Assembly (NCBI GenBank): GCA_963807965.1
Contig: CAWEDU010000017.1
Coordinates: forward strand, 207,452 to 271,451
Source of the DNA: an uncultured Thermoplasmatales archaeon
Lineage (GTDB): Archaea > Thermoplasmatota > Penumbrarchaeia > Penumbrarchaeales > Penumbrarchaeaceae
Direction of reading: 5' to 3'
DNA length: 64,000 nucleotides
Of this stretch, positions 1-54,647 are shown in pieces. A program made the position numbers and the translations under genes. How positions within the stretch are numbered: position 1 is the stretch's first letter; each line of letters opens with the position of its first letter. The notes beneath the pieces are model-generated. The model ran no database searches. It was given only the letters and a program-made list of their open reading frames with translations, and was not told where the DNA came from.

Positions 1-3000
1 TGGTCCGAGGTCTTTATGAAGGTATTTCCTATGACGTTAATATCTCCTATAGTGACATTCGAATAACTTGTCAGTGTGGAGGTCGTGTAATTTGTTCTGA
101 TCCCTTTCCCAGAATCGAATCTGTTATTGGTGATGACCAGATCATCAAAGACCACCTGTCCGGATGTCATCCCCTCTCCGATCATATCATGGTCGATGTC
201 CAGTCCGTAATCATGTGCACGAATGTCGTTTCTATCAATGGTCCAGATTCCCATACTCATCATAGTTGATCCATCAATCATATTACCAAATTTATGGTGT
301 GCATTGGACTCTATTGCTGAACCATTGGACCTGATGGAATTGCCACTTATACGGACTCCCTCGAACATTCCCTTGGAGGAATCCCTCGACTTGTGACCGG
401 TATCCTCTATACTTTTCAGGAACACTCCAGCACCTTCGGAAATAATGTCATTTCTCTCAATAGAAATAGTGCCTATTGCAGCATTGGCAGAACCGGTCAA
501 ATAACTGAAAGAGGTATGTAAGCTGTTCAATCCAACTCCTCTATTTCCCGAATCGATGGTATTTCCATCCATGGTAATATTTCCAAAGTACAATTCAGAA
601 TTTCCCGAATTGAAAACCCCAATGGACCATATGTTATCCAGGATCATTCCATCATCTTTGGAATTGACCGAGTTGTTATCCATATGGATGCCGTCAAATC
701 TGACCGTAGAGGCATCCTCCATCCAGATGCCCATTTCGAACACCTCGTTTAGGATGATCCCGGTTGAATTTGTCCTGACGATATTATTGCTCAGCGATAT
801 CGCCCCCATCGTGGAGGAGGAATCTCCGGATAATTGGGATCCCATACTTCCAATCCTCCGTATATGGATTCCTTCGGTTTCTGAGATAATGTCATTTCCA
901 TCGATCATAATATCTTCCATATTGAATGAGGCCCCTTCCATGAGGAAGGATCCAAAGGAGTTCAGAAAGTCAATATGGATACCCTGGTCATCAGATGAAA
1001 TGGAGTTCTTTGAAAGAATTACCGAGCCTCCTTGGAAAGAGGAGTTCTGTTCAAGATAAGACCCGAGTTCGATTATATATCCGAAATAGATTCCGATAAA
1101 TCTTGATTCGATCGAATTACCCATTACACTGATATCTTCCATGAAGAAACTGGCATTATCCATCAAGAAACAACCGAGATCATATACTTGTGAGAAGGAT
1201 ATGCCCGTTTCATTCGATCCAATATCATTATCTTTAATCATTATTGATCCCATGAAAAATGAGGCATCTTCGGAAAGGTAATTCCCCACTGTTGTCAGGC
1301 TGTCAATATAAATGCCGCTGTATTCCGATATTATCTCGTTATTTGAGATCTCTATGTTTTCCATTATAAAAGTTGCAAATCCTCCAATTTCAGTTCCGAT
1401 GTTAGAAATATATTCGATAATGATCCCCTCTTCCGATGCCCAGACGAAGTTTTCCCGAATGTCCAATGTTCCAAATACAAAGGAGGATCGTTCTGACATG
1501 AATACCCCCCAGGTATTGATCTGGTAGATGTTTATCCCCGCGCCTGAGGACCAGATATGGTTCTCAGAGATCACTATATCCATCATTGTCATTGATGATT
1601 TATCTGACATCTGGTAACCGAATTCCTCCAGATGATTGAGGAATATACCATCTCCGTGAGACCAGATCGCATTCTTCTTGATCCCGATCTCTCCGATCTG
1701 AACAGTTGAAGATCCGTGGATACTCCTACCGAATCCTGATAAGGTGTTCAGAGCTATTCCGATACTTTCCGACCAGATATTATTTTCAGATACATTGATC
1801 CCATTCATTGTGAACGATGACCATCCGTATAGTTCACATCCGAATTTCAGGAACTGAGAAAATCGGATCCCCTGGTATGCATGTATGTAGTTCCTAAGGA
1901 TCTTGAAGGTGCCTACCGATACACTTGAGTTATCACTGAGTTGATATCCTGCCTGATTCATATTCATTAAGATTCCATAGGCCGAGGAGTAGGACATATC
2001 GGCCTTCAGGCCATTTCCTGAAATGGTGATATTTCCCATGACGAAACTTGAGTTCTCGTGCATATCGTTGCCCATATTATAACAAGTCATCAATACCGGA
2101 ACCGCCGTACTATTGACAACATTCTTTGTGATAGTAATTTCTCCAATAGAACAAGTGGCATTCCCATATAATCCGGACACCTGGTTCAATTCGACATGGA
2201 TGCCGGTGCTGGAGTTCAGTATCCTGTTATTGATGATCGTTGTGCTCTGGGTGACCACCTTGGCATCGTCCTGGATATCACTCCCTGGTAACTGGAAATA
2301 GACAAAGATGCCCTCATTTTGAACATCGATCGTGTTATCACTGATCGTTAAATTCCCTGAAATGAAGGCTGAGTCATCATAGAAGCGGGTCCAAAGAGCA
2401 TATCCGGGTATGGTAATTCCAGAATCAGAATTGATTGAACTGACAAGATTGCTATGTATGATCAGCTCACCCATTCTTATGCTTGATGATCCATGGAGAT
2501 TGACTATGTCGTAATAATCCACATACAATCCCCTATCTCCAAAATCAGTGATGTTGTTGTTGGAGATTATTAGATCACCCACCGAACCATCCACATTCGT
2601 GAGCGTCTCAAGATCTGAATAGAAATATAGGCCCCTCCCTCCGCCTGACATGTTGTTATTAATTACCTGGAAATCTCCAACATCCAATGTTCCTCCCCCC
2701 ATGGAAAGAACATATAGAGAGAAATAGAAGAGATCACCAGATAATGAAGATGAAGTGAAATCATTCCCGGAAAGGATCACATCTCCTGTCTTGATATTAG
2801 TGCTATTCTCATTATCTGATAAAAGGCCTATATTTACTTCCATGCTGGATGACGTTGACGATCTCAATATGATGTTATCCTGGATCTGGATGCCGCTCGA
2901 TGACCAGGAAGTATGGATGTCATTTATATTGACATCAATAATCAAATCCCTTTGGTTGTCGGAAAAAACATTGTTAGTGATATTATGCCCATAATAGGTT

Positions 3001-3437
3001 GACTGGATAGCAACGTAATAACTCCTGATCATTAGGTCGGTTATTGTAACATTGTCCGCATTTAAAGTGAAGGCAACCGGGTTCATTTCAAGTGGGGGGA
3101 AAAGGGCTGAACCGTTTCCCATTATCCAGATCTCAGAAGTGATCATTACCGTTTCATAATATGTCTTGGGGGTCAGGAGGACGATATCACCATCAGATGC
3201 AGCATCCACTCCCTGCTGTATGGTGGTATAGTTGCCAGGTCCTGATCCACCAACGTAACGGATGGTTCCCGGATAGGAACCAATTTGATGGTCCATCACT
3301 TTGATCTCTGGAATGGTGATCCCTTGCTCATCAACAACAGGCTCTGCTTCGGTATTCAGAGAAAATGGGAGAAAGGATCCCATTGTTAATATCATAAACA
3401 ATAAACAGGCAGTCGCAGCATTTTTTCGAGTGAACAA
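1..3437 (-). CDS. Giant secreted parallel beta-helix (PbH1-repeat) surface protein. The N-terminal ~1145 aa lie in the window; the C-terminus is beyond the window start. A TTG start is inferred with signal peptide FTRKNAATACLLFMILTMGSFLPFSLNTEA.
   Basis: My own translation of the minus strand gives one uninterrupted frame from about 3437 to position 1. It was absent from the ORF track because the stop lies outside the window. Dozens of ~22-25 aa repeats follow the GxxIxxNxIxxNxxGIxL pattern typical of right-handed beta-helix (NosD/pectate-lyase-like) proteins. N-x-S/T sequon density is very high. A stop codon lies upstream of the signal-peptide-like N-terminus. Confidence 0.6.
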   Translation of the reverse strand, partial: MFTRKNAATACLLFMILTMGSFLPFSLNTEAEPVVDEQGITIPEIKVMDHQIGSYPGTIRYVGGSGPGNYTTIQQGVDAASDGDIVLLTPKTYYETVMITSEIWIMGNGSALFPPLEMNPVAFTLNADNVTITDLMIRSYYVAIQSTYYGHNITNNVFSDNQRDLIIDVNINDIHTSWSSSGIQIQDNIILRSSTSSSMEVNIGLLSDNENSTNIKTGDVILSGNDFTSSSLSGDLFYFSLYVLSMGGGTLDVGDFQVINNNMSGGGRGLYFYSDLETLTNVDGSVGDLIISNNNITDFGDRGLYVDYYDIVNLHGSSSIRMGELIIHSNLVSSINSDSGITIPGYALWTRFYDDSAFISGNLTISDNTIDVQNEGIFVYFQLPGSDIQDDAKVVTQSTTIINNRILNSSTGIHVELNQVSGLYGNATCSIGEITITKNVVNSTAVPVLMTCYNMGNDMHENSSFVMGNITISGNGLKADMSYSSAYGILMNMNQAGYQLSDNSSVSVGTFKILRNYIHAYQGIRFSQFLKFGCELYGWSSFTMNGINVSENNIWSESIGIALNTLSGFGRSIHGSSTVQIGEIGIKKNAIWSHGDGIFLNHLEEFGYQMSDKSSMTMMDIVISENHIWSSGAGINIYQINTWGVFMSERSSFVFGTLDIRENFVWASEEGIIIEYISNIGTEIGGFATFIMENIEISNNEIISEYSGIYIDSLTTVGNYLSEDASFFMGSIMIKDNDIGSNETGISFSQVYDLGCFLMDNASFFMEDISVMGNSIESRFIGIYFGYIIELGSYLEQNSSFQGGSVILSKNSISSDDQGIHIDFLNSFGSFLMEGASFNMEDIMIDGNDIISETEGIHIRRIGSMGSQLSGDSSSTMGAISLSNNIVRTNSTGIILNEVFEMGIWMEDASTVRFDGIHMDNNSVNSKDDGMILDNIWSIGVFNSGNSELYFGNITMDGNTIDSGNRGVGLNSLHTSFSYLTGSANAAIGTISIERNDIISEGAGVFLKSIEDTGHKSRDSSKGMFEGVRISGNSIRSNGSAIESNAHHKFGNMIDGSTMMSMGIWTIDRNDIRAHDYGLDIDHDMIGEGMTSGQVVFDDLVITNNRFDSGKGIRTNYTTSTLTSYSNVTIGDINVIGNTFIKTSD

Positions 3438-3554
3438 ACATAACCCCCCAGAATCGATCCCTACGTATTCAAGATACCTGGTCTTTTAAAAGGTTGTTCT
3501 TTTAATCTATATTATCTCAAACCCAGATCGATCCCTCCATTTACTCCTTTTTCA

Positions 3555-5860
3555 ATGAACGTTAGGGTCAAATATGGGGAACTGGATAACCAGACGGGAA
3601 AGATGAGGACCGATGCGGTAATACTGACGGTCCTGCTTCTGGCAGGACCCTTTTGGATCCTATTCGATCAGGGAGAGGGAATCCCTTCTCAGTTCGATGA
3701 AGATAAGGACCTCGGTATCTACATGGAAGAGGACCTTCCCATGGTGAGGTCCTCTGTTTCAGGGAACCTCACTGACCATGATCCGATAGTAATCAACAAT
3801 GAGACCGATCTTGAGGACCTCATGTTCAAAGAGAGCTGGCCCGGTAATGGGACAGAGGAGGATCCATACATAATTGAGGACCTTGAGATAGATGCCGAGG
3901 GAGAGAGTATGGCCATTTTCATGGGGAATACAAGTTCTTACATTCAATTCATTAACTGTGATATTTCAAATACCTCCTCAACTCATTCATTCAATATTGC
4001 CATATTCTTATGGAATGTATCGAATGTATCAATTGAATCATGCTTTATTCATAACAGCGAATATGGGGTCATGATAAGGGAGGCCCACTACCTGTATCTT
4101 AACAACATCAATTTCTCGGATTGTGATATTGGTTTTGGTAGTGGTTATTCGAAACCAGTATCAAGAATAACTGTTGACAATTGCACTTTCAGTCCTTCGA
4201 TATATGATGCAATTGAGATCGATACGGGTTCCTTCCTTTCAGTGGTTAACAGTTCCTTCACTTCAACCGGGAATGCTATTGATTTCAGAGTCTGTGATAA
4301 TATTACACTGTCTGGAAACGAATTCGATGATTGTGAAAATGCTATAAGGATCTCGTAGATAGTAAAGAAATTGATATTAGGAAGATACAAACATCATTAA
4401 TGACTCTTTCCAGAGCAATTTATCTTTCCAACGGTGAACATATCACCATTTCAAATATATCTTTCAGAAACAATCGCGGTGTGGATATTGATATCCGGCA
4501 ATCCAGTAATATTAAACTCTTAAACATAACTGGGCTAAATAGTTATAATGGGTGTTATATCTGGCTTGCCGGCATAATTAATTGCATATTTGATGGATTT
4601 TATGTCAATGTTCCAGTTTTGGTCTTTTTATTGAGGGTTCCATTAATGTAGTTTTCCAGAATTGGGATATCCAAACCTCTCCATACAATACATTAGGAGA
4701 TGTCCTCAGTATTTCCGGTTCAAATCATATAATGATAAGGAACTGCACAATACAAACACATTCCGAAAGAACTCTATTCATGAGTCTATCTTCGGATATT
4801 CAAGTTTTCAATGGCATTCATTTCACAACAGTCATGGCACAGTTGTTGAAATGCAAAGATCATATGATAACGAGTTTTTCGAAAATTCATTTGATCAGAG
4901 CGATTATGACCCGGATTATAATGATTATCATACCATAGTCGTTGGATACAACTCTAATAATAACTTATTTTTTAACAATACTCTAATCGGTTCTGGATTC
5001 ATATTTGTTATAATGAATAAAGATGATTACCGTGAACTAATTGACCAGACAATTGCGCAAAACAATACACTGAACGGGAAATCGGTTTACTATTTTACCG
5101 GACAAGACTTCATCATTTCGACATTCCTGATGGGAATCAATATTTCTTCGTGAATTGCTCCAATCTTAACAATTAAAGGATTGGGATTTCCATAACAGCA
5201 CTGATTTTTTATTGGTTCGATCTGGAAATGTAAGAATTGAGAATTGCAGTTTCTATACAAATAATTCTAATATTCCCTCATTCCTAATTGTTGAATGCAA
5301 CAATGTAACTGTTAAAGAATCAAAAATATAGTCTGTTAGTTCTGATTCGATTGTTCAGAAGATCCGAGGACGTAATATTGACAGGAAACACCTTTGAAAG
5401 ATATGTGAAAATCGAGGATTCAAATAATATCTCCATTCTGGAAATAACCATTACTTAGAACATAGACCAACATTTGAAAATCTACAAATAGTCACAATTA
5501 GGAATAATTACTTCTCTCAAGGTTTGTATATTGAGGTATCTGGAAGAAGTTAATATTATGGGAAATGAGATTCCTATTTTCAGAGGATTACGATTCAATA
5601 TATATTTACGATTCCTCGGATATTGAGATCAAAAATCAGAATTTGAGTTCTGAAAATTCCGGATTGGACTCTTATTCGGCAGATCGAAATCTCAATTATA
5701 GATTCGAATATCGAAATTGCACAATAGGTCTGGAAATCAGATTTTCCAATGATATTGTGGTTGGATAATAATGGATATCGAATTGCGAATGAGGGTAAAT
5801 TCCTGGTAGTAGTCTCAAGAAGGTGTAATTTCAAATAATATTATTATAAGATTGAAAGAA
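3555..5860 (+). pseudogene. Decayed paralog of the beta-helix surface protein. It has an intact N-terminal signal/TM segment (MRTDAVILTVLLLAGPFWILF) but its PbH1 repeats are broken into at least four frames with multiple stops. It may once have been the secreted N-terminal half of the downstream 5862..8129 gene.
   Basis: ORFs 3555..4358, 4400..4651, 4662..5153 and 5565..5768 all translate to beta-helix-like repeats (NxTxSxNxF, GNxI motifs) in different frames. The stretch 5150..5560 shows repeat-like peptides in all three frames, interrupted by TAA/TAG/TGA, and is AT-rich. Confidence 0.45.
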
Positions 5861-5861
5861 T

Positions 5862-8129
5862 ATGCAATTGAATCGAAGAAGGATCGAAAGAATTAATATC
5901 CATTCAAACTGCATTCTTGAGAACAACCAGGCAACCGGGAGTGTGTATGATACAAAAACAGCCCAGATAAAAGAAGAATCAGAGGATAATAATTATTTCT
6001 TGAAGGAAAAGGAAATCACTACTCCGAACACACATCTCCCGATGACGGATTTCGATGGTATAGTGGATGAGGAATATCTATTCCATGGAGTAGGGGAATC
6101 GGATCCTTATCCGCTGGTCAGGACCCCCATGCCAACCTTCGATGCACCCGAAATAATCTCTATCACCCCAGGGTCCTCCTCGGTTGTTCTCGAATGGACC
6201 GAACCTCAGAAAAGGTATGGAGGGGACCTCGATGGATATAAGATATATCAGAAAGAGGGGAAAGGTCCGTTCCAATTGAGGTTCGACATATCAGATACGA
6301 ACATGATGACCATTCGATCCCTTTCAAATGGAGAAGTCTACTCTTATATGGTATCTGCTTACAATGATATGGGAGAAGGTCTACTCTCCGCTCCAGCATC
6401 GACGGTTCCAGATGGTACAGGGCCCGAAATATTCATTCACACTCCCGTTGAAGGGTCCTTCCTCAATGATGAGATCATTGAGCTCCAGTGGTCATGCATC
6501 GATGTTGAAACGGGAGTTTCTCTCATGGAGATATCCGTGGATGGAGGGGAACCCATCGAGATCCCGGTAGGTTATGGTTCCTATGATCTGGAGGGCCTTT
6601 CAGAGGGGGATCACATCGTAAATATCTGGTCAGAGAACTCCATCTCATTATCAACCCAGGTTTCTGTCAATTTTACAGTAGACCGGACCTCTCCATACCT
6701 TCTTTTTGATCATTCCGGTCCATTATATTCCAACCTTGGGTCCTTCCCCATATCTTGGAACGCTTACGATAACCTCTCGGGACTTGATGACGGATTCACC
6801 ATTTTCATGGAGGATAGGGATCCCATTCAAACCGATAGGAGCGACTACGAGATAATTATCCTGGATGAAGGGGAATATTTAGTTCTCATCTCCTTCAAGG
6901 ACCTTGCAGGGAACTATGGTTTGGCGAGTTTGAAGGTCATTCTGGATCAGACCCCTCCTGAGATCACCATCACTCCGGAAACGGAGTCAATTTTAGATAA
7001 AGACAGTATCATCCTGGATTGGGTCTCGGATGGGACCGGAAGTCCGATCAGAACAGTAGAAATATCCATTGATCGGGGAAGGTCCGTAGTCCAATTGGAA
7101 GGTCCTATGGAGTATAAGGACCTTAAAGATGGATCCCATGTGGTCACATTCTACCTTGAGGATAAAGCGGGGAACTCCGCTTCCAAGGATGTCACTATTT
7201 TCATCGATACAATTTCGCCCAGGATCGATTACAAGGTCCCATCCGGAGATAAGGTTCCCCTTGACAGTGATATGGAGATCGTTTTCTCCGAGAATGTTTT
7301 CAAGGTATCGGTAGTGATAAACGGCATCGCTTTCCAGACAATTATTAGCGGGAACAAAGCATACATCACTCCGGTTCCTGCCTGGGAGATCGGGAAAATA
7401 TATTCCATCGATGTTTCAGCAGTGGACCTCGCAGGGAATCCCCTGGAGAATGGATCCTATGAGTTCACAACCGTAGGTCCTGGATCAGTAAGCGGCAGGA
7501 TCATGGATGCTGGAGGCCGTCCTGTTGTTGATGCTGCTATTACCTTAGAGGGAACAGAATACCGGTCAGATGAGGAAGGCAGGTTCTCCTTCACCGGACC
7601 TGAGGGTAACTGGACAATACTGATCAATGCAAAGGGATTCGTGGAGTTCAATACAACCATTTCTCTGGTTCCCGGAAAGGATGCCGATCTGGGGAATGTA
7701 ATACTCTTGAAGAAGGAAGGAGATGGAAAGGATATCTCCGGTATCCTCATCTTTCTTATGATTCTTCTTATATTGATCATTATCTCAGGTTCAATCGTAT
7801 TCTTTGTTCTAAGAAGAAAGAAGAGGGGTCTAGAATACCAGGACATGTCAGCTATGAAAGAGATCATGTCCGGATTTGGAATAAGAAGGTCTCCCAAGGA
7901 GATCAACTGTTATCAGATCCTCGATGTTCCAAGGAATGCCAATGCTTTGGAGATCAAGAAAGCTTATAGAAACCTTGCAGGGATCTATCATCCGGATAAG
8001 AATGCCCATGGAAATACAGATGTGGAATTCGATGAGAAGATAAGGGAGATCAATACTGCAAAGACAATACTACTGGACCCGGAAAAGAGAGAGGTCCACG
8101 ACAGGATGCTGAACCATTTCGAAGACTGA
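5862..8129 (+). CDS. Single-pass membrane protein: FN3 domain, about four Ig-like (Big-type, DxAGN motif) domains, a carboxypeptidase-regulatory-like beta-sandwich, a TM helix, and a cytoplasmic C-terminal DnaJ J-domain.
   Basis: The 755-aa ORF contains an FN3-like block (PEIISITPGSSSVVLEWTEP..YSYMVSAYNDMGEG) and repeated TSP/TPP..DxAGN modules. GSVSGRIMDAGGRPVVDAAITLEG..GRFSF matches the CarboxypepD_reg/prealbumin fold. The hydrophobic stretch ISGILIFLMILLILIIISGSIVFFVL is followed by RRKKRG. The C-terminal 70 aa, INCYQILDVPRNANALEIKKAYRNLAGIYHPDKN...REINTAKTILLDPEKREVHDRML, match the J-domain consensus including HPD. There is no N-terminal signal peptide; a TGA stop lies 9 nt upstream of the ATG. 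Confidence 0.8.
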   Translation: MQLNRRRIERINIHSNCILENNQATGSVYDTKTAQIKEESEDNNYFLKEKEITTPNTHLPMTDFDGIVDEEYLFHGVGESDPYPLVRTPMPTFDAPEIISITPGSSSVVLEWTEPQKRYGGDLDGYKIYQKEGKGPFQLRFDISDTNMMTIRSLSNGEVYSYMVSAYNDMGEGLLSAPASTVPDGTGPEIFIHTPVEGSFLNDEIIELQWSCIDVETGVSLMEISVDGGEPIEIPVGYGSYDLEGLSEGDHIVNIWSENSISLSTQVSVNFTVDRTSPYLLFDHSGPLYSNLGSFPISWNAYDNLSGLDDGFTIFMEDRDPIQTDRSDYEIIILDEGEYLVLISFKDLAGNYGLASLKVILDQTPPEITITPETESILDKDSIILDWVSDGTGSPIRTVEISIDRGRSVVQLEGPMEYKDLKDGSHVVTFYLEDKAGNSASKDVTIFIDTISPRIDYKVPSGDKVPLDSDMEIVFSENVFKVSVVINGIAFQTIISGNKAYITPVPAWEIGKIYSIDVSAVDLAGNPLENGSYEFTTVGPGSVSGRIMDAGGRPVVDAAITLEGTEYRSDEEGRFSFTGPEGNWTILINAKGFVEFNTTISLVPGKDADLGNVILLKKEGDGKDISGILIFLMILLILIIISGSIVFFVLRRKKRGLEYQDMSAMKEIMSGFGIRRSPKEINCYQILDVPRNANALEIKKAYRNLAGIYHPDKNAHGNTDVEFDEKIREINTAKTILLDPEKREVHDRMLNHFED

Positions 8130-10343: not shown

Positions 10344-11186
10344 TTGATCTCAACCTCCCTGGGTTGTCTTTTTAATGAAACCCAAGATGAATTGGGTCCT
10401 GCTCCAGTAATATTCATCTCGGAAACATATCCAAAAGAAGGAGATAAGCTGATTTTCAGATGTGAAGGTTCCTTCGTTGATGGTTCAATCGAAACATACC
10501 AATGGAAGATCTTCAACGATGAAGATGAGGTTATTTTTACGAATGATAGCATTGATTTCTACTTCACATTTAAAGAGGCAGGGAGTTACAGAGCGGAATT
10601 GGTAGTGATAGATGAAAACGGAAGGACTGGAAATGCAACACAATCGATAGTGATCTCTTCCAAATTAACTTCCAAGGAATTCACTTTTGATATCTATCCC
10701 GGGACCTTTACATTCGAGATCAATGAAACCTTTGACAACGGGGATTTCAGATTCAATTATACTGGCTATATGATCAATGGAATATGGAACCCTGAGATCA
10801 GGATCACCCATATTATTATGAATAAAACCCTTGGAATATTTTGGAATTTTACAAAAGGATCCATGAATGCGGGATGGGGTTTCAGGTCAACAATTATTGT
10901 CCTTACCTCTGATTATGTGATGGTAGAGATCGAAGATATTGACCATACGAATTTTTTCGGTTATGGGATTTTTTACCAATTGAAAAACAACTCTACATTT
11001 GGTTTCCAATGTGGTCATACAATAAAATGGATAGCATATTTCCAGGAGAATGATACGGCCGAATTGGAGATTATAAAAGATGATCTCTCTTCCATCATGT
11101 ATGTGGAAAGGGTGAAAAATACGGTTGTTGGAACAATAACCATACGTGTGAAAAGTAAGGATATCATCATGTTCTTTCCACAGTAG
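10344..11186 (+). CDS. Secreted PKD-domain protein with a lipoprotein-like N-terminus; many N-glycosylation sequons.
   Basis: A PKD-like block (IFRCEGSFVDGSIETYQWKIFND..FTFKEAGSYRAELVVIDENGRTGNAT) is present. The upstream in-frame sequence KSIKVLFIIILISTSLGCLF is signal-like but has no ATG, so the true start may be a non-ATG codon near 10296-10340. Confidence 0.6.
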   Translation: MISTSLGCLFNETQDELGPAPVIFISETYPKEGDKLIFRCEGSFVDGSIETYQWKIFNDEDEVIFTNDSIDFYFTFKEAGSYRAELVVIDENGRTGNATQSIVISSKLTSKEFTFDIYPGTFTFEINETFDNGDFRFNYTGYMINGIWNPEIRITHIIMNKTLGIFWNFTKGSMNAGWGFRSTIIVLTSDYVMVEIEDIDHTNFFGYGIFYQLKNNSTFGFQCGHTIKWIAYFQENDTAELEIIKDDLSSIMYVERVKNTVVGTITIRVKSKDIIMFFPQ

Positions 11187-17307: not shown

Positions 17308-18132
17308 TTAAATCGTCAATTTCTTTCCGATCAGATTCCCCACGATCCTCAACTTTGATGGTTTCACCTTCTTTCTGTATATGACCATTGGATCCTTTCT
17401 GATCCTTCCCGCCGTCCAGTTGTACATATCAGATGCGTTCATGACCGGTATCCTGTATCTCTTCTCCAGTGCATCGAAACCCTTTTCCGCCTCTTTCTGC
17501 CAAACCTCATATCTGTCAAGTTGGGATCGGATGAATCTCCTGAAGGCATCCTTATCATTCTCGATGTCCTTAAACTTCAGACCCCTTAGACCTGACTTTT
17601 CTATCTCTTCTGTGGGGAGATACCTTCTACCAAGATGATTATCTTCCTCGATATCCCTTATGAAATTGATATACTGCATTGCCTTCCCAAGCGAACGTGC
17701 ATGCTTGAAGAAGCCCTCATCCACATCAAGTATCCTTGACATCATCAGGCCCACGACCTCTGCAGAGCCGTAAATGTATTCCTCGACCTCCGCCAGTGTG
17801 TCATAGGTGGATTTGGTAATGTCAAGCTCCATGGAATGGAGGAAAGCCTCAACCCATTCCTTTTCGAATTTCTTTCGATGTGCAAGGTTCGTGAAGCAGT
17901 CTAAGACCTCATCCCCGATCATCTCTCCATCCCATGAACGGCAGAAATCATCCTGGAATTTACAAAAATCATCCTTTCTCTGAGGGACCGCATCCACATG
18001 GTTATCAGCAACCCTTACGAAACTGTACAAGATAAAGACATCATCCCTTACCTTTGCAGGAAAGAATATTGAGTTGTAGAAGTAGGTCTTCGACCCCTTC
18101 TTGAAGATCTCATAGAACCTGTTTTTTTTCAT
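17308..18132 (-). CDS. crtB: Phytoene synthase (squalene/phytoene synthase family).
   Basis: Asp-rich motifs YSFVRVADNHVD and YINFIRDIEED; 274 aa; adjacent to crtI. Confidence 0.8.
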   Translation of the reverse strand: MKKNRFYEIFKKGSKTYFYNSIFFPAKVRDDVFILYSFVRVADNHVDAVPQRKDDFCKFQDDFCRSWDGEMIGDEVLDCFTNLAHRKKFEKEWVEAFLHSMELDITKSTYDTLAEVEEYIYGSAEVVGLMMSRILDVDEGFFKHARSLGKAMQYINFIRDIEEDNHLGRRYLPTEEIEKSGLRGLKFKDIENDKDAFRRFIRSQLDRYEVWQKEAEKGFDALEKRYRIPVMNASDMYNWTAGRIRKDPMVIYRKKVKPSKLRIVGNLIGKKLTI

Positions 18133-19586
18133 CTTTCAAGATCTCCTCGACAAGTATCTTTGATGATATCAACACCATTGGGACGCCGATACCTGGATGT
18201 GTATATTGCCCTGTATAATAAAGGCCTTTTACTCTTTTAGACCTGTGTGATGGCCTGAATATGGCAGTTTGGGTCAAGGTATGGGCAAGACCTAGTGCTG
18301 TTCCTTTATATGCATTATACAAATCAGAAAAATCCCTGTGGGTTACCACCCTTTTACTGATAATGTGGTCCTTAATTTTCTCCCCTAGAAGATCTTCCAG
18401 ATGTTCTATCGTTGCATTGAAGTATCTCTCCCTTATCTCATCAGTGTCATCCAGACCTGCAGCTACCGGGACTAGGAAGAAAAGGTTCTCACAACCTTCC
18501 GGAGCAACGGTAGGATCAGTTTTTGATGGACAGCAGATATAATAGGATGGATCCTCGGGCCAACCGGGTTTGTCGAAGATCGACTGGAAATGCTCATCCC
18601 AGGAGGGTGAAAGGAAAAGGTTGTGATGGGTCAGTCCCTCGATCCTCTTGTCCAAACCGATGTAGATAAGAACACAGGAGGGAGCGATCTTTTTCCTTTT
18701 CCAGTATTTTTCGCTGTAAGTTCTGTATTTCTTCTCCAGCAGATCGAGTTCGGCATGGGGGTAGTCAGCATTGATGATTACCAGATCTGATTTGAGTTCG
18801 CTCTTGGTTGTTTTTACCCCCTTCCCCCTTCCTTTTTCAACAATTATCTCCTTCACTTCCTCATTGAACCTGAATTCAACCCCCTGCTCCGTCCACAACT
18901 TCCTGAAGGATCGGGCAAGTTTCCCCATACCTTCTATCGGATACCAAACTCCCAGGTTGAAGTCCACATGCGACATCAGAGCATACATTGCCGGACTCTT
19001 GTTGGGGCTCCCCCAAGGAAGACAATGGTGTATTCCAGTATCTTTCTCAGGTCCTTATCCTTGATGAATCTCTTGGCATATGTGTCAAGGCTGTCGAATA
19101 CGTGGAGTTTCGTTCCCTCTATCATCAGCTTCTTACTGGCGAAATCGAAAATGGAGTTGTATTCCTTGTAAATGAACTCCCCCATGGCGATCTTGTATTG
19201 GTAAGCCGCAGAATCAAGATAATCCTGAAGCTTTCTGCCCCCCTCCTCCTCGATGCTGTCGAAGAGTTCCTTGTTTTTCTCCAGGTCAGCGCTGATATCC
19301 AGCCTTCGGTCATTGGAGTAGAAAACCCTGTAGTTTGGGTCCAGCCGTTTCAGTTCATAGTAATCGGTCACCTCTTTCCCGAATTCCCTAAAAAGGTCCT
19401 CGAACACCTCTGGCATCAGATACCATGAGGGACCCATATCGAATACGAACCCTTTGTCCCGATGAACAATGGCACGTCCCCCGGTTGATCGTTCTTCTCG
19501 ACAACCGTAACATCATGCCCTTCTTTCGCAAGCAGAGCTGCCGCGGTCATTCCTCCGAATCCAGCTCCCACTACAATGATCTTCAT
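18110..19586 (-). CDS. crtI: Phytoene desaturase, interrupted by two -1 frameshifts, each at a G5 homopolymer (about 19010-19014 and 19478-19482).
   Basis: The N-terminal frame gives [36 protein letters not shown]. It continues in ORF 18976..19437 ([13 protein letters not shown]...FLGGAP) and then in ORF 18110..18988 ([24 protein letters not shown]...). Adding one G at each run restores QPGGRAIVH and [16 protein letters not shown]. Confidence 0.8.
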
Positions 19587-29797: not shown

Positions 29798-30718
29798 GTG
29801 AGATTGGTAATTGGGAAGGCAAAACACAACAAGGGGGACCTTGCAGGCATATATGATACCTCGATCTGCCAGGTAAAGTTCAGAAATCCCCGGATCCTGA
29901 TGAAAAGGAAGAGGACCTTCGATCAGGACAGGGATCTCTCTTTCGATCATAATAGAAGGATCGATGTCAGACTCCAGGGAATCCTTTTCAGGAAGACCAA
30001 GGCCATCGGATTCAGGAATATCGGGGTTTCCAATCTTGAGGATATCGACAAGAGTGAGGACTGGCCGACAGTTGAACCAGCGAAGAGTCCTGAGTCCATG
30101 GTGATGGATAGGGATTCTGATTGGGAGCATACCTGGGGAATGGACCAGACATACGAGGAGATCTGGGGAACTGGACGGGATATGGAACATGATGCAATAC
30201 TTTTTCCAACGGACAGGTTGGAACCTCAACTTACATATTACTCCAAGCAGAAGCTGGTTAAGGATGATGATCCAATTTCGAGGAGATCCTCGAAAAGGCG
30301 GAACAAGGCAAAGGCCAAGAAGAAAATTGGACAAACCAATACTGCAAGAAAGATGCCATTCCTGGATTATGTCGAAGATCAGGACAGCAGTATAAGGACC
30401 AAGAACCCTGTCTACCAGGTGGCAGAGGAAGATAGCGAGCCGATCAATTCACCCCCATCCTCCAAAGATGTCAGGTTATGGTCCGAAGATGAAAGCTCAA
30501 ATATCTCATCCGAACAGGTACCAGTCAGTCCCAAGGATAGGAAGAGAGCTTACGCTTTCAATGAGTATGGTTTATCCCTCATGGAAAGCGGTCAATATGA
30601 TAGAGCAATGTCATACTTTCAGAAAGCAAAAGGCCTTGATCCAAATGAAAGGACCTATACCACCAACCAGAAGAGATGCCAGCAGTGGATGGATTATCAT
30701 TCAAGGAAGGGGGTTTGA
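29798..30718 (+). CDS. Hypothetical protein with a C-terminal TPR-like repeat.
   Basis: AYAFNEYGLSLMESGQYDRAMSYFQKAKGLDPNE is TPR-like. The basic, low-complexity middle may mean the true start is downstream. Confidence 0.35.
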   Translation: MRLVIGKAKHNKGDLAGIYDTSICQVKFRNPRILMKRKRTFDQDRDLSFDHNRRIDVRLQGILFRKTKAIGFRNIGVSNLEDIDKSEDWPTVEPAKSPESMVMDRDSDWEHTWGMDQTYEEIWGTGRDMEHDAILFPTDRLEPQLTYYSKQKLVKDDDPISRRSSKRRNKAKAKKKIGQTNTARKMPFLDYVEDQDSSIRTKNPVYQVAEEDSEPINSPPSSKDVRLWSEDESSNISSEQVPVSPKDRKRAYAFNEYGLSLMESGQYDRAMSYFQKAKGLDPNERTYTTNQKRCQQWMDYHSRKGV

Positions 30719-30721
30719 TCG

Positions 30722-31357
30722 ATGGACCTGCTACTTGTGCTCTACCTTGTTATCGGGATCGCCAGTTTTGTAATACTTCTTGTGATCATGCTTTTGGGAG
30801 GTCTGGACCTGGATCTTGACGGTGGGCCGGACATCGACCTGGACATAGGTGACATGGATATAGATATCGACGCAGGCGGGGGTCCAGGATTGTTCAGTCT
30901 TCCTGTGATGCTTTCCTTCACATCCTCGTTCGGGGGTTTGGGTGCTATTTTGACCTATTTTGGTGTGGACCCGGTCATAACCCCATTCATAGCGGCTTTC
31001 GCATCCCTGGTCTTCGCGGTGCTTCTCTTTCTTATAGTAAGGTATGCTTTCAAGGTCTTCTCATCAGATTCCACGGTGAAATATGGGAGCTTAATAGGAA
31101 AAAAGGCAACTGTCACAGTGCCACTCAATCCCGGAATGGAAGGACAGGTAACACTATTCACCGAACAGAGAGGGAGGACATTGATCCCTGCTGTCGCAGA
31201 TCGAAAATTCGGGAATAATGCAGATGTCATAATAACCAGGAACCTTGGCGACTCAGTGAAGGTCGTATCACCCTCGGATTGGAGGAAGACCAGATCCAGA
31301 TCAAAGAAAGGGGCAGGGAAGCCCCGAAAAAGAGAGGAGAATTTGAATAAGAGGTGA
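30722..31357 (+). CDS. nfeD: NfeD-like membrane protein (short form, OB-fold), the partner of SPFH/flotillin.
   Basis: N-terminal TM helices, then a beta-rich domain (GKKATVTVPLNPGMEGQVTLF...ADVIITRNLGDSVKVV). It is 6 nt upstream of flotillin. Confidence 0.65.
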   Translation: MDLLLVLYLVIGIASFVILLVIMLLGGLDLDLDGGPDIDLDIGDMDIDIDAGGGPGLFSLPVMLSFTSSFGGLGAILTYFGVDPVITPFIAAFASLVFAVLLFLIVRYAFKVFSSDSTVKYGSLIGKKATVTVPLNPGMEGQVTLFTEQRGRTLIPAVADRKFGNNADVIITRNLGDSVKVVSPSDWRKTRSRSKKGAGKPRKREENLNKR

Positions 31358-31363
31358 GAAAGA

Positions 31364-32909
31364 ATGGACATAGTATTGCTATTGATATTTGCGGTCCTGC
31401 TCCTTTTGGGAGTTGGGATAGTGGCGGTGATCATCTATGCTGCGAGGTACAAGAAGGTACCCCCGGACAGTGCGATGGTCGTCTATGGTAGAGGAGCAAA
31501 GAAGGGTGCAAGGGGTTACTCAGTTGTATCCGGAGGAGGCAAGTTCATCCTGCCAGTTGTGCAGGGTTTCGATTTTCTTCCTCTTGATGTCAGGACCCTG
31601 GAGATCTCGGTGACAGATATCGTTACGGATGTCGTGACATCCGGTGCCCAGATGAACATCAAGGCCGTTACCCAGGTCAAGATAGCATCAGATGAGGCAT
31701 CATTGTACACAGCAGCCGAACAGTTGTTGCACAAGACCGACAAAGAGATCAATGAGATCGCCCAGAAAACCCTTGAGGGACATGTCAGGGGGATCTGTGC
31801 GACGATGACCATCGAGGCCATCAACTCGGATAGAGATGCAGTAGCATCCCATGTTCAGTCCCAGGCCGCAAAGGACCTGAGGAACATGGGTATCGAGATC
31901 AGGTCCTTCGTAATTAGAGATATTGAGGACCAGTATGGATACATCAAAGCCCTGGGAAGAAAGAGGACCGCCGAGGTCAAGAGGGATGCAAGGATCGGTG
32001 AGGCCATTGCCAACAAGGAGGCGACAGTAAAGGAAGCAGGGGCGGCAAGGGAGGCCGAGAGGGCCAATTCCGAGGCTGAAGGTCAAGTGGCCATCTTCCA
32101 CAAGGAGAGAGATATCACTAAGCAGAATGCCGAGGCCGAGGTTGAGATCTCCAAGGCAAACAGATCCATCTCCTTCGATCTCCAGGACAAGAAACGGCGC
32201 CAGGAACTTATCAAGGAGCAGATCCAGATCGAGATAGAGGAAAAAGTCAAAAGGATCGAACTCCAGGAAAGGGAGATAGATAGGAAAGGCAAGGAGCAGG
32301 AAGCGATCCAGGTGGTCCCTGCCAAAGCTGCTGCAAATGCCAAGATTGCCGAAGCTGATGGTGAAAAAGGTAGGATCGAGAGAATAGCTGAGGCCGAAAA
32401 GATCAAGACGATAAGAGCAGCAGAGGCTACCCAGTCCCACCTCAAATTGACAGCAGACGGTGAAAGGGAGAAGCTTGAGAAACTGGCTGAAGGTCAAGCT
32501 GCCAAGATCCGTCAGGAAGGAACAGCTGAGGCCGAGGTTATCCAGTTGAAGGGACAGGCCGAAGCCGAAGCCATTAAGGCAAAGGGTCTGGCAGAAGCAG
32601 AGGCAATGGAGAAGAAGGCACTTGCGTGGAGAAAGTGACGGTGATGCTGCAATAACCCAGCTCATAGTCGATCAGCTGCCTAACATTGTGAAGGCAGCAG
32701 CCTCATCACTCGAAGGAGTGGATAAGGTCATAGTCATGGGCGACCAGGGACCTAACGGATTTGTCAGCAAGACCGTGGACATAGCCGCACAGATGCCTGC
32801 ACTGGTGGAATCTCTGACAGGTGTTGACGTGACCAAGCTGATAAGGAATGTCGTCACCACCAAGGAAGAATCCGGGCAGGTGGATGTGGAAGCAAAGGAC
32901 GCGAATTGA
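31364..32909 (+). CDS. floT: Flotillin (SPFH/band-7 family, FloT/YuaG-like), frameshifted near 32628-32640.
   Basis: N-terminal TM, SPFH domain, then a long A/E-rich coiled coil. ORF 32622..32909 encodes the conserved C-terminus (YGDAAITQLIVDQLPNIVKAAASSLEGVDKVIVMG). AAGTGACGG versus AAGTACGG joins AWRK-YGDAA. Confidence 0.75.
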
Positions 32910-37491: not shown

Positions 37492-37776
37492 ATGTCTGTT
37501 GTATCAACCCGGATCAACGATGAGCTCGAAAGGGAGCTCGAACTCTTCATTGAGGAGGAGCAGATAGAGAGAAGTGGAGGAGTACGGAAGCTCCTGATCA
37601 CCGGACTAGAGGAATGGAGGAAGAGGAAGGCCCTTCACCTTCTTTCCGAAGGGCAGGTCACCTTCAACAGGGCAGCAGAGATCGCAGGTATGGATATCTG
37701 GGATTTCAATGGACTTGTAAAGAAGACCCATACGGTATGGGTGGATGAGGAGTGGTCAGGGGAGGACCTTGAATAA
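37492..37776 (+). CDS. UPF0175-family antitoxin.
   Basis: 94-aa protein. It overlaps the downstream DUF3368 gene at TAATGA, the canonical UPF0175/DUF3368 pair. Confidence 0.6.
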   Translation: MSVVSTRINDELERELELFIEEEQIERSGGVRKLLITGLEEWRKRKALHLLSEGQVTFNRAAEIAGMDIWDFNGLVKKTHTVWVDEEWSGEDLE

Positions 37777-38315
37777 TGAATCTTCTTATAATCGACTCTA
37801 CTCCATTGATCCACCTCGGGAAAGCGGACATTCTCGATAAAATATCCGAACTTGAATACAATGTTATCGTGCCAATGTCCGTGTTCGAAGAGGTGGTGAA
37901 TAATGGGAAAAGGAGGGGTCTTACAGATGCGTTGAAGATTGAAAGAATAATTCGATCGAAACCATTTAAGGTAGTGGATGTAAAAAAAGGAGATATCCAT
38001 GACCTTTTCAAAGAGAATCTTAGTTTATCAGATGCTGATAAGGATGTATTAGAAGCTGCAAGGAGAAATAATGGTATTGCGATATTAGATGAAAGTTACG
38101 GAAGATCCATTTGTGAAGTGGAAGGGATCAGACATAAAGGAAGTCTCTGGATCTTAAAGGAAATGATCATTTATCGAGCAATAACTCCGGAACAGGCAAG
38201 AAATGCACTTGACAGGATGATAGAGGGCGGATGGTTTTGCTCTACAGTTTTGTATTCCAGAGCTTTGAGAATGATCGATGAGAAAGAATACAGAACGAAA
38301 AGAAGTAAATCGTAA
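37776..38315 (+). CDS. DUF3368-family PIN-like toxin.
   Basis: The N-terminus (LLIIDSTPLIHL) resembles PIN strand-1 with an acidic residue. Translationally coupled to the upstream UPF0175 gene. Confidence 0.55.
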   Translation: MNLLIIDSTPLIHLGKADILDKISELEYNVIVPMSVFEEVVNNGKRRGLTDALKIERIIRSKPFKVVDVKKGDIHDLFKENLSLSDADKDVLEAARRNNGIAILDESYGRSICEVEGIRHKGSLWILKEMIIYRAITPEQARNALDRMIEGGWFCSTVLYSRALRMIDEKEYRTKRSKS

Positions 38316-38519: not shown

Positions 38520-40677
38520 CTACTCGATCCTTACTCTACAGTCAACTGCAACAGCTCCTTTCTCTGATATGAAAAGCGGATTGATCTCGATATCGGTGAT
38601 CTCATCAACCTGAAGCATCACATCACCCAGAGCCTTCAGTGTTATTGCGATCTTTGACCTATCGGCTTCCTTCTTTCCCCTGAATGCCCCGAGTAGTGCC
38701 TTGCCCCTTATCTCGTCCATCATCTCCCTGGCATCCATCTCAGAGATGGGAGCAACCCTGAACGAGACATCGTTCATGGCCTCTACCATGACCCCACCGA
38801 CACCGAACATCACCGCAGGTCCGAACACCCTGTCCCTGATCGAACTGGCAATGACCTCCCTTCCTGTCAACTGGTCCATGACGATTATCTTCTCTGACAT
38901 GGGTTCCAGCTTCTCATAAGCCTCCACCAGTTCCTCTATGTTGTCAATATCAATGATGACACCACCCCTTTCGGTCTTGTGGATAAGGTCAGGGGAAGAA
39001 CCCTTCAGGACCACCGGGAAACCGATCTTCCTTGCAGCCTTAACGGCTCCGTCAATAGAATCGACCACCGAATATTCACACATCTCAATTGGTCCTGATT
39101 TTAGGAATTCCAGTGATGTTTCCAGGTCCATGAAATTGTGACCTGCCTTTCTTGTCCTGTCTATCAGCTTTTTTATCGCTTTCAGGTCCCATTTCTCCAT
39201 GGGAGGAAGGTCCAGTTCCCTGGTGTTCTTGAACCGCTTGTATCTGTAGAGGACCTCCAGAGATGAGACGGATTCCTCGGGGAAATAGAAGGCAGGTAAC
39301 CCTGCCTCGTTGAAGGCCCTGATCTGGACATCCGCATCCCGACCACCGATGTAGCACAGAACAAGTGGTTTCTTGGGGTCCTTCATGGCCTCTATCAGGT
39401 CTTTTGTGAACTTCTCCACATCGATCCCTGAAACAGCTCCATATATGCCAATGACCGAACCGATGGTTGGTTCGTTCATTGCCTCTTTAAGGCATTGGAT
39501 ATAGTTTTCCGGGGGAGTTTGTGCAGTGATATCCACGGGATTTGAAAGTGATGCAAATGGTGGAAGGAGAGGGCCGAGTTTCTCTGCGATCCATTCAATA
39601 TTATAGAATAAGAGGAAGCCCTGACATTCCCAATTCATCTATTGCGAGTATACCGAAACCACCACCGTTCGTTATCACAAGGCATTCTTCCAGCTCCGGA
39701 AGTGGAAGATCGTTCAAAGCCCTTGTCCAGTCTATTGCTTCTCTAAGTGTGGGGGCTCTTATAGCACCCGCCTGTCTGAATGCAGCATCGAAAAGTGAAT
39801 CCGCTCCTGCAAGGGATGCTGTGTGGGATGCAACTGCCTTGGCCCCTGCTTTGGATCTTCCGGATTTCAGGATGATAACTGGTTTGATCCTAGAGACCTT
39901 CTTGACCTTCTTTATAAACTCCCTTCCATCTTTGAGGCCCTCGATATACATCAGAATGATCTTGGTATTCTCGTCACCACAGAGGAAATCAAGGATCTCC
40001 TCGTCTGAGAGGTCCGCCTTGTTACCCACGGATGTAAGGGCGGAAACACCGATCCCCTCCTGAAAGACCCGGTCCATAAGGGCGATGCCCAGGGATCCTG
40101 ATTGAGTGATAATGGCAACATTCCCCTTAAGGACCATCTCGTTTCCGAACTGGGCATTGAGGTTTACGGGGGTATAGATCATCCCGAAGACATTGGGACC
40201 CAGGATCCTGATGTTCTGTTCCATTGCGGTCCTTTTGATCTCTTCTTCCAGATCGTAGTTTCCTATCTCTTTGAATCCGGATGAGATAATAACAACGAAT
40301 GGAACTCCCTTTTTTCCGCATTCGATGAGTTCCTGATTGACGTACTGTGCCGGGATACATATGAGGGCCAGATCGATCTCCACAGGAACATCTCCAATGT
40401 CCTTGTATCCCTTCTGTCCGCAGACATCTTCCCCCTCACGATTGATAGGGAACATGCCTCCCTCAAACCCTCCATTGACCATATTGTTGAATGTCTTGAA
40501 GCCAATTTTCTTGGGATTATCCGATGCTCCGATGACAGCTACATTGCGGGGTCTGAAGAACCTCTCCAGATCTGGAACCTTACAGGAATCTTCTTCCATG
40601 ACCGGGGAATGGTATGGTATTTTATAAAGAGATTGCAGGGGTACTGACCAAGTAGTGTCTGCTTTTGATCGTGACAT
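38520..40677 (-). CDS. acd: Fused alpha/beta ADP-forming acetyl-CoA synthetase (NDP-forming acyl-CoA synthetase), frameshifted near 39601-39640.
   Basis: ORF 39601..40677 has the CoA-binding and succinyl-CoA-synthetase-like domains (VAVIGAS, GVPFVVIISSGF). ORF 38520..39638 continues with a ligase-CoA region and an ATP-grasp beta domain. The two ORFs overlap by 38 nt in different frames. Confidence 0.75.
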
Positions 40678-43800: not shown

Positions 43801-45279
43801 GGAAAGAACGGATGGATAGAGGTCTGGAAGGAGACCATGGACCTCATTCCGGGACCTCCACAAAGTGACTATTCATTGAATATTGAACATACCATTCCTG
43901 GACCAGTCTGCTACCTGTCAGTCAAAGGTACGGACCAAGCGCAGAATATTGGTGATTGGTCCTCCCGGACCAGGATAAACGGACCCGGTTCTGAACTGAA
44001 CATTTATATTGAGATCCCAAGTGTGGTCGGAGCAAATCCGCTGTTAGAGGTCAAGATGGACCTGCCTCTGGGGGTGGACATCTCATCAGTTTCCATGAAG
44101 CTCGAACCCGGCCTTGGTACCATAGCGGTCCTTAAACCAAGATCATTGGAGGTCCTGACCAATTCAACTCCGATCCAGGGATCCGATCTCCTGGTCCCAT
44201 CGAGGGTCAAAGCAGCATTTCAGGTCCCGTTCGATGAAGGTGTATTCGAGGCCTGGATAACATTCAGGGATGGATTGCCACTTCCGGTCGAGAGGATATG
44301 GGGTCCTCATTCCCTTACAGTTGACGGGGAATCACCTCTCATCGATCTGGAGGCAGACCCCTTCTATACAGAGGTCCCCGCAAGGGTGACCTTCGATGCA
44401 AGCGATAAGACATCCGATATATCCATGATGGAGATCTCTGTTGGCGGGGGGGAATTCGGACCTTTCGATCTGCCAGGAGCTCCGTCACTGCATCTAAATG
44501 AAGCTGGGAGTTCATGGATCATGGTGAATTTCTCGTACGGACCCGAAACCGAAATAATTGTAAGGGTCCTCGATGAAGCAGGAAATATGGCAGAAGGATC
44601 GGTGACCACCAGGGCAACGAGACCTCCTTTCGTGAGCATCGAGAGGTCATATACAGGAACAGTAGTTTCCGGAGAGGAATTTCAGCTCACTGCGGACTGC
44701 CAGGACCCTGAGGGTGATATCCTTTCATTTTCATGGTATGTGGATGATGTCCCTGCAGGTACAGGAGAGGTCCTCTCCCTGGTCCTTGAGAACGGGACCC
44801 ACCGGATCGTCCTGAACTGTTCAGATGGAGACCTTTTCGTCCAGAAAGAGATGATGATCATTGCAGAAGGACCTGCAATTGAATTGGAGGAGAAACAGGG
44901 TTCACAGGAGAAGGGTCCTGCTTTTCTCCTAGTTGCAGGTATGATCGTTTCCATTCTTGTCATGGCTATGATCTCAGTGATCCTGGTCCTCTGGAGGAGA
45001 GGGGATAGATCTGATGGCGATGAAGAGGATGAGGAAGTTTGGGGTGATGGGGACTCGGTCAAGACAGGGAGGACCGGTGAAGGTCTTCAAGATGACATCA
45101 GTAAATCGAACGGGGAAGATATCGGTATCCACTGTGATATCTGCCTGAGAAGGTTATCAGGAAGCTCCAGGACCGTGAAATGTAGATGCGGAGCACAATT
45201 CCACAGAGCCTGCGCTTCCAGGGAAGGGGAATGTCCCGAATGCGGAAGGGAGATAATGCTCCCATCCGATGGCATATAG
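40805..45279 (+). CDS. Giant (~1490 aa) single-pass surface protein: signal peptide, beta-helix-like NxS/T-rich region, Gly-rich region, multiple Ig-like (DxAGN) domains, a PKD-like domain, a TM helix, and a cytoplasmic C4HC3 zinc-finger-like tail. One frameshift lies near 42235-42247.
   Basis: Signal peptide MSALITKTFCLWVAIFLAFLAGMTP. GG(Y/S)GG-rich region from 41400 to 42450. The second ORF starts at TTG with an open upstream frame, so it is treated as a continuation. Repeated TxP..DxxGN modules. The TM segment AFLLVAGMIVSILVMAMISVILVLW is followed by RRGDR. The tail reads HCDICLRRLSGSSRTVKCRCGAQFHRACASREGECPECG. Confidence 0.7.

Positions 45280-53169: not shown

Positions 53170-54647
<1,478 letters not shown>

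Follow-up and report, generated by a model that had tools for sequence, protein, structure and literature searches.

Clustered frame breaks, probably not the result of long-term erosion, in the beta-helix half of a giant J-domain surface gene from an uncultured Thermoplasmatales archaeon

Does a coding sequence that lies scattered over three reading frames have to be a sequence in decay? The question is raised by a 64,000-nt stretch of an uncultured Thermoplasmatales archaeon (contig CAWEDU010000017.1 of assembly GCA_963807965.1; hereafter the window), in which the beta-helix coding sequence at 3555-6044 is spread over all three plus-strand frames and runs into an annotated open reading frame (ORF) of 755 amino acids (aa) that carries a J domain. 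An interpretation made from the letters and their translations (the sequence-only reading) had taken this region for a genuinely eroded paralog of the upstream surface gene and, possibly, for the N-terminal half that the J-domain protein had lost. In the analysis presented here (positions are window coordinates and frames are named by coordinate modulo 3, as F0, F1 and F2) the second of these proposals is upheld: 3555-8129 is almost certainly one gene of ~1520 codons, encoding a type-I membrane surface protein. As for the breaks themselves, we infer that they do not represent long-term decay, and consider that they are, with modest confidence, residual consensus or assembly indel noise within a strain-variable cassette of a gene that would be intact in vivo.

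The gene model derives from comparison with relatives. When genomes were scanned with the 755-aa protein, a single one was recovered (81% identical, lineage EX4484-6), encoded in a SPAdes/Illumina metagenome-assembled genome (MAG; PMC12220078) named 'Thermoplasmatota archaeon isolate Protein_d157_A_EX4484-6' (contig CBDDUX010000029.1; locus L003), where one intact ORF of 1572 aa comprises a signal anchor (MRTDALILTVLLLAGPFWILFDQGEGIP, one residue different from the AVILTVLLLAGPFWILF of the window), ~750 aa of Beta_helix/NosD, fn3, immunoglobulin-like (Ig-like) and CarboxypepD_reg domains, a transmembrane (TM) helix and a DnaJ domain. Both loci are preceded by a divergent giant surface gene (1898 aa in L003) and followed by LamG/pentaxin, HSP20, metallo-beta-lactamase-fold and HhH-GPD genes, and this conserved synteny is matched by colinear similarity at both ends of the gene (89% identity over aa 1-90 and 85% over the C-terminal 694 aa), as expected of orthologs. 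The window gene has the same order of domains from N- to C-terminus (signal anchor, NosD-like right-handed beta-helix, fn3, Ig-like, CarboxypepD_reg, one TM helix, J domain) and a similarly low-GC beta-helix module, and when stitched at 12 junctions it yields 1518 aa; its ortholog differs in being uninterrupted and in possessing a beta-helix cassette that is ~55 aa longer and only 17-40% identical to that of the window. The same architecture recurs in a more distant protein (P0003, 'NosD domain-containing protein [Thermoplasmatota archaeon]', 1069 aa, 32% identity). Since the ortholog is intact and P0003 shares its architecture, we consider 3555-6044 to be the N-terminal half of a giant gene and the single giant gene to be the ancestral state; homologues showing separate genes to be ancestral, which would have spoken against this view, did not turn up, and L003 presents a single ORF instead.

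Both ends of the broken gene fit this model. As the sequence-only reading had it, the signal anchor is present at the 5' end, in a 267-aa ORF (3555-4358) that matches Pfam Beta_helix with 43.7 bits (cut-off 25.9) and NosD with 30.9 bits (cut-off 23.6), and the downstream ORF (5862-8129) is devoid of an N-terminal hydrophobic segment or signal peptide. Its C-terminus does carry a DnaJ match (PF00226, 65.7 bits, aa 682-747) with the HPD motif, predicted by the positive-inside rule to lie on the cytoplasmic side of the TM helix. The beginning of this 755-aa ORF is not ancestral: neither its ATG at 5862 nor its first ~7 codons follow the ancestral frame (frame 2 is kept by the homologous coil GVISNNIIIRLKEYAIESKK until ~5885, past the ATG), and what it reads at codons ~47-61 as LKEKEITTPNTHLPM is, in another frame, the conserved GKGNHYSEHTSPD, the cap motif GNHYSEHTSPD (identical in L003) being found in frame 2 at ~6003-6043. 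The damaged zone, previously placed as ending at 5860, thus reaches ~6044, inside the annotated ORF.

No continuous ORF could be followed through the beta-helix repeats. Open segments tile the region end to end in alternating plus-strand frames (overlapping over 4337-5893), and a codon-usage dynamic programme (DP) that allows frameshifts traced through them a path with 12 shifts, 0 in-frame stops and a score of -5.7, as compared to -109.5 +/- 19.6 for dinucleotide shuffles (maximum -30.3, with ~22 events) and -93.6 for the reverse strand. The multi-frame coding signal is therefore far above chance, and the beta-helix-like fragments that had been noticed across the frames are real, as the Pfam matches also attest. 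On 17 control genes the same programme produced no internal event (in three of them, events at the gene end were forced by the end constraint). An ortholog-guided protein-to-DNA alignment, run independently, gave the same frame path and added a compensated indel pair inside the 755-aa ORF, bringing the total to 12-15 frame-changing indels, all within 4344-6044, with 0 in-frame stops over 507 stitched codons. The many TAA, TAG and TGA codons reported for the region exist, and they are off-frame results of the frameshifts, none of them falling along the stitched frame.

The path leaves F0 at ~4344-4356, still inside the 267-aa ORF, and its individual steps (Table 1) are of unequal clarity. A clean 1-nt deletion near 5100-5112 leads into the segment HHFDIPDGNQYFFVNCSNLNN, and the second lesion of the compensated pair consists of one surplus G (CCCGAT[G]ACGGAT, against CCCGATACGGAT in L003); the match at 4612-4710 (L003 aa 435-469) is not collinear with that at 4827-5108 (L003 aa 435-520). 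Outside the zone, the ortholog-guided alignment registered no event in 6045-8126 (85% identity), nor any along the 3.4 kb of the upstream surface gene (70% identity).

Table 1. Features of the broken gene and members of its family (window coordinates, except for the loci L001-L003)
Feature	Position	Strand	Basis
Still-open 5' part, 267-aa ORF (N-terminus, signal anchor, beta-helix N-cap, first coils)	3555..4358	+	Pfam
Hydrophobic signal peptide / signal anchor AVILTVLLLAGPFWILF	3615..3665	+	K/R residues before; sequence
Low-GC, deeply diverged NosD-like beta-helix cassette	3930..6035	+	identity, pS, codon comparison with L003
Zone of all frame-changing indels	4344..6044	+	codon-usage DP, open-segment tiling, ortholog-guided DP, DNA alignment
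Open segments, first part	F0 3502-4355; F2 4337-4648; F1 4594-4935; F0 4647-5150; F2 5045-5173; F1 5170-5328	+	
Open segments, second part	F2 5309-5455; F1 5428-5550; F2 5492-5623; F0 5535-5765; F1 5728-5835; F2 5813-5893; F0 5856-8129	+	
Beta-helix coils, frame 2	4346..4618	+	tblastn to L003 aa 298-363; weak Pfam Beta_helix on ORF 4400-4651
Beta-helix coils, frame 1	4621..4839	+	weak tblastn 4612-4710 to L003 aa 435-469, E=0.054
Frame 0 segment with conserved motif QNNTLNGKSVYYFTGQD	4842..5107	+	tblastn to L003 aa 435-520
Frame 2 segment HHFDIPDGNQYFFVNCSNLNN	5108..5173	+	80% identical to L003 aa 521-540
Frame 1 segment LKDWDFHNSTD...	5176..5328	+	L003 aa 542-592
Short coils F2 / F1 / F2, 2-4 shifts; least certain stretch of path	5330..5581	+	
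Frame 0 coils EDYDSIYIYDSSDIEIKNQ...IGLEIRFSNDIVV	5583..5762	+	resemble start of P0002
Frame 1 then frame 2 coils (GYRIANEG...; GVISNNIIIRLKEYAIESKK)	5764..5881	+	align with P0002 GVIWSNIFMRCEGYAIENDG
755-aa annotated ORF	5862..8129	+	fn3, Ig-like, CarboxypepD_reg, TM helix, DnaJ
Compensated indel pair	6000..6044	+	ortholog-guided alignment, DNA alignment
Intact conserved C-terminal half	6045..8129	+	85% identity to L003, zero frame events
fn3	6144-6404	+	profile
Ig-like	7101-7472	+	profile
CarboxypepD_reg	7485-7700	+	profile
TM (hydrophobic 26-mer, then RRKKRG)	7734-7811	+	sequence
J domain	7905-8102	+	HPD at 7989-7997
J-domain surface family members	window 5862-8129; L003 7505-12223; L002 10001-13210; L001 20-2371		

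If the gene had been eroding for long, traces other than indels would be expected. Assuming 12 indels, a substitution:indel ratio of 5-10 and the AT-rich codons of the region, 2-6 in-frame stops should have accumulated, as opposed to the 0 observed (P(0 stops) = 0.002-0.11). Moreover, because everything after the first break at 4344 would be untranslated, lesions are expected equally in 6045-8129, and yet they are confined to the first 45% of the stretch from 4344 to 8129 (under uniform decay with 11-13 lesions, P = 0.449^10 to 0.449^12, i.e. ~3e-4 to 7e-5). Within the broken part, the stitched frames retain 0.15-0.21 bits per codon (0.13-0.145 in the intact L003 cassette), and their GC at the three codon positions and amino-acid composition match those of the L003 cassette. 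The C-terminal half shows a ratio of nonsynonymous to synonymous substitution (dN/dS) of 0.17, among neighbour genes ranging from 0.05 to 0.20, and a relative-rate test (L001 as outgroup) counted 35 unique replacements on the window branch and 33 on that of L003.

The locus resembles a pseudogene in having an ORF disrupted relative to an intact ortholog; a mixed lesion spectrum over the whole untranslated remainder is not seen (0 in-frame stops; 0 lesions in 6045-8129), and neither is relaxed constraint in the form of a faster branch, a dN/dS drifting towards 1 or a loss of codon bias. The proposal of genuine erosion consequently finds no support, the lesions being indel-only and restricted to the cassette, the coding statistics preserved and the downstream half unrelaxed. 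The AT-richness once adduced for it is there (GC falls to 0.31-0.36), but we reject it as a sign of decay, as the intact L003 module is equally AT-rich (GC 0.29-0.39, third-position GC 0.26-0.33, like the window cassette). Low GC together with frame breaks should not be taken as ancient decay.

All the breaks fall inside a cassette of deep divergence. The window cassette (~3930-6035) corresponds to ~7925-10140 of L003, and identity between the two genes drops from 89% (aa 1-90) to 17-40% (~aa 130-820), only to return to 85% afterwards. Within the cassette, synonymous sites are saturated (proportion of synonymous differences, pS, 0.70-0.81), in comparison to synonymous distances (dS) of 0.23-0.50 in the flanks, and identical residues share the same codon in 47% of cases, as against 76-78% in the flanks. 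Divergence is just as high in the portion of the cassette that is still open (aa 131-263) as in the broken portion, and therefore does not stem from decay. The window and L003 carry cassette alleles that separated anciently, far earlier than the rest of the gene, and the presence of such old alleles between young flanks implies replacement by recombination. The cassette locus likely differs among co-occurring strains, with alleles too distinct to be aligned; consistent with a strain-variable cassette, the Illumina-derived contig L001 stops within this very beta-helix module. A homolog search with the 267-aa ORF returned distant matches only, with no close intact copy of the cassette among them, a search with the stitched cassette returned zero matches, and two metagenome scans for a close intact copy found none.

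We argue that this strain variability may bear on how the breaks arose, since a cassette that differs among strains could escape short-read polishing or homology-guided correction. Frameshift-fragmented genes occur in error-prone or incompletely polished long-read assemblies, and the window resembles these in its indel-only lesions, its preserved coding statistics and the sporadic single breaks encountered elsewhere (~1 per 10 kb, versus 1 per 130 nt in the cassette). Noise in sequence or assembly explains why the lesions are indel-only and sharply confined, why the coding statistics are intact and the C-terminal half unrelaxed, and why sporadic breaks occur elsewhere, and thereby the assembly error against which the sequence-only reading had itself cautioned moves, by a modest preference, to the front of the explanations. 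Several observations weigh against it. If the contig was built from Illumina reads only, a cluster of 13 indel errors would be highly unusual; the consensus appears to be generally good, for ~20 kb of syntenic flanking genes have the exact lengths of their orthologs and show no frame event; unlike in poorly polished long-read assemblies, the lesions do not cluster in long homopolymers (with which the junction intervals show no association, homopolymer density being ordinary); and no DNA repeats able to cause collapse or mis-assembly were found. Furthermore, several giant surface genes are broken in the window, which could be a biological pattern, and the stitched N-terminal half scores 81.6 bits for Pfam Beta_helix and 49.4 for NosD, while the intact ortholog attains 171 for Beta_helix, a halving that may stem from stitching errors or from some real amino-acid change.

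The same observations lend themselves to a very recent inactivation of the giant gene, after which the cassette would have gained ~13 small indels and left the 267-aa stub and the 755-aa ORF as leftovers. We regard this as possible, if clearly tentative: the existence of an intact ortholog makes the broken state the derived one, the clean flanking genes speak against a general indel problem, the lesions bear no link to homopolymers, and the halved beta-helix score and the further broken surface-protein genes are as would be anticipated. On the other hand, it has to reconcile 0 nonsense codons in ~510 codons, a 2.1-kb C-terminal half that is lesion-free although untranslated and lacking a signal peptide of its own (P ~1e-4), a dN/dS of 0.17 with no rate acceleration in that half, and undiminished coding statistics in the stitched frame; it would therefore need a cassette-specific, indel-only mutational burst. 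In a further scenario the breaks are real, and the cassette would have been imported in a defective form, or would represent the switched-off state of an exchange system that varies the exposed beta-helix but leaves the conserved ends as they are. The allele that is so much older than its flanks (saturated pS versus dS of 0.2-0.5), implying recombination, and the termination of the lesions at the 3' boundary where conservation resumes (~6003-6045) agree with such a scenario, which we nevertheless hold to be quite improbable, given that the window yielded neither silent donor cassettes nor repeats, that the searches of public data found nothing, that long silence should also bring nonsense codons, and that only two alleles have been seen.

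The remaining explanations dispense with a single broken gene. One would divide the locus into two functional genes, the first (3555-4358) coding for a short secreted beta-helix protein and the second (5862-8129) for a separately expressed J-domain membrane protein, with a dead spacer between them. Although both ORFs are open and carry separate public annotations (P0028 and P0001), and the C-terminal half has been under purifying selection over the whole divergence, the 755-aa product would have to bring ~620 residues of extracellular-type domains to the outside without a signal peptide (with a J domain that the positive-inside rule assigns to the cytoplasm), the ancestral frame is missed both at its start codon and at residues ~47-61, so that a conserved motif is scrambled, and no relative shows such a split, all of which renders it very unlikely. 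Least probable of all, and close to dismissed, is the decayed duplicate of the divergent upstream surface gene (1-3437, minus strand) that had originally been proposed. The two do share a character as N/I/S-rich, repeat-containing surface proteins, and their L003 counterparts have in common a C-terminal Ig-like/CarboxypepD_reg/TM architecture, but the region is colinear with the N-terminal half of the 1572-aa ortholog, tblastn gives no match to the upstream gene, BLASTP reaches a best E of 0.52, and the upstream protein has no Pfam Beta_helix or NosD match. On balance the locus is a fragmented gene of the ordinary kind: most likely an assembly artefact and, if not that, a young pseudogene.

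With respect to known families, the beta-helix matches exceed the gathering thresholds of the right-handed parallel beta-helix proteins of the NosD / PbH1 type (Pfam PF05048, PF13229), from which the window gene differs by a coding frame broken 12-15 times; the likeness to NosD is one of fold family only, and no evidence was found for a copper or N2O-reductase-related function. At the other end, the tail would make the product a class C, membrane-anchored J-domain protein as far as its sequence goes. Class C J-domain proteins are very heterogeneous, with TM regions and diverse extra domains, and include the TM-anchored DjlA, DjlB and DjlC of E. coli (PMC8215388). The window protein is comparable to these three in having an HPD-bearing J domain on the (here predicted) cytoplasmic side of a single TM helix; unlike them it comes from an archaeal host, and its J domain forms a short tail on ~1400 residues of extracellular beta-helix/Ig-like protein. 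The union of a J domain with a giant ectodomain is an unusual combination in archaea. By analogy, binding or processing of an extracellular polymer would fall to the ectodomain, and recruitment of Hsp70 at the membrane to the J domain.

Two observations came as by-products of the comparison, namely an old cassette allele swapped between otherwise closely related genes and a beta-helix family that terminates in a J domain. The latter is a small family of giant beta-helix/Ig-like surface proteins from Thermoplasmatota, which end in a TM helix followed by a J domain predicted to be cytoplasmic. An N-cap motif (GNG..PY.I..L.ID) and a C-cap motif (SPD.D.DGIVDE.Y) are common to the window gene and the proteins P0003, P0010 and P0012. 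In a further relative (P0002, 55% identical) the contig breaks off within the beta-helix, the frame staying open up to its final base, and the family gene of locus L002 is situated within a tandem array of four beta-helix giants, adjoining a Fic gene.

Isolated breaks are also found in conserved genes elsewhere in the window. An ADP-forming acyl-CoA synthetase (ACD-type CoA ligase) is split at ~39609, inside the Ligase_CoA_2 domain (ORFs 38520-39638 and 39601-40677, minus strand), its halves matching residues 7-320 and 329-689 of a fused 698-aa enzyme (8wzu_A). A Band_7/flotillin gene is apparently frameshifted near 32636 (ORFs 31364-32638 and 32550-32906, plus strand); deletion of one G from AAGT[G]ACGGTGAT would let it read ...KKALAWRKYGDAAITQ. 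The ORFs 40805-42247 and 42232-45279 (plus strand) apparently constitute one giant surface gene (signal peptide, Gly-rich region, Ig-like domains, TM and a C-terminal prokaryotic RING finger) with a frame break near 42225-42240; it has five full-length relatives of 1432-1481 aa, which the 1015-aa ORF matches from residue ~450-490 onward. One more large surface gene, at 45349-48773 (plus strand), with Ig-like domains, acidic repeats and a terminal TM, apparently lies in 3-4 ORFs (45504-47120, 47077-47871, 47946-48773). At all three breaks for which an extra base can be deduced (6043, 32636 and 47078) a G has been inserted in T_ACG to give TGACG; the chance of this motif co-occurring with the break intervals is ~0.03, and behind the pattern could be either a mutational hotspot or an error of a systematic kind. 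No such T_ACG motif is shared among the cassette lesions.

Two further candidates for broken genes were rejected. The apparent frameshift that splits a CrtI-like amine oxidase (18976-19437 and 18110-18988, minus strand) recurs as the same 292-aa ORF in L003 (covering profile positions 191-442 only, with phytoene synthase next to it at 17308-18132) and is probably natural, and the ORFs 29798-30718 and 30722-31357 are two adjacent genes. Between the HSP20 and the metallo-beta-lactamase-fold genes lies a low-GC (0.35-0.38) PKD-domain gene (10344-11186, plus strand), which is absent from the syntenic position of L003 and hence is a lineage-specific insertion. The window also contains a complete archaeal 16S rRNA gene (53170-54647, plus strand), the host being a Thermoplasmatota archaeon; the 23S gene was not found within the 64 kb (unlinked rRNA genes), and no tRNA genes were detected in it. 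Two apparent toxin-antitoxin pairs (plus strand) are encoded at 37513-38315 (UPF0175 and DUF3368 proteins) and 57135-58138 (nucleotidyltransferase/HTH and HEPN proteins).

For the organism, the immediate consequence is that the annotated 267-aa and 755-aa proteins should be regarded as one gene of ~1520 codons, and, if the breaks are technical, that the surface-protein repertoire of this MAG is under-called. Were the breaks real, they might instead belong to an archaeal surface-variation system, in which the conserved signal-anchor and fn3/Ig/TM/J-domain ends flank an exchangeable, anciently polymorphic low-GC beta-helix cassette, here silenced or defective; we deem this unlikely, but if it held true, the cytoplasmic J domain would couple a giant ectodomain to Hsp70 at the membrane.

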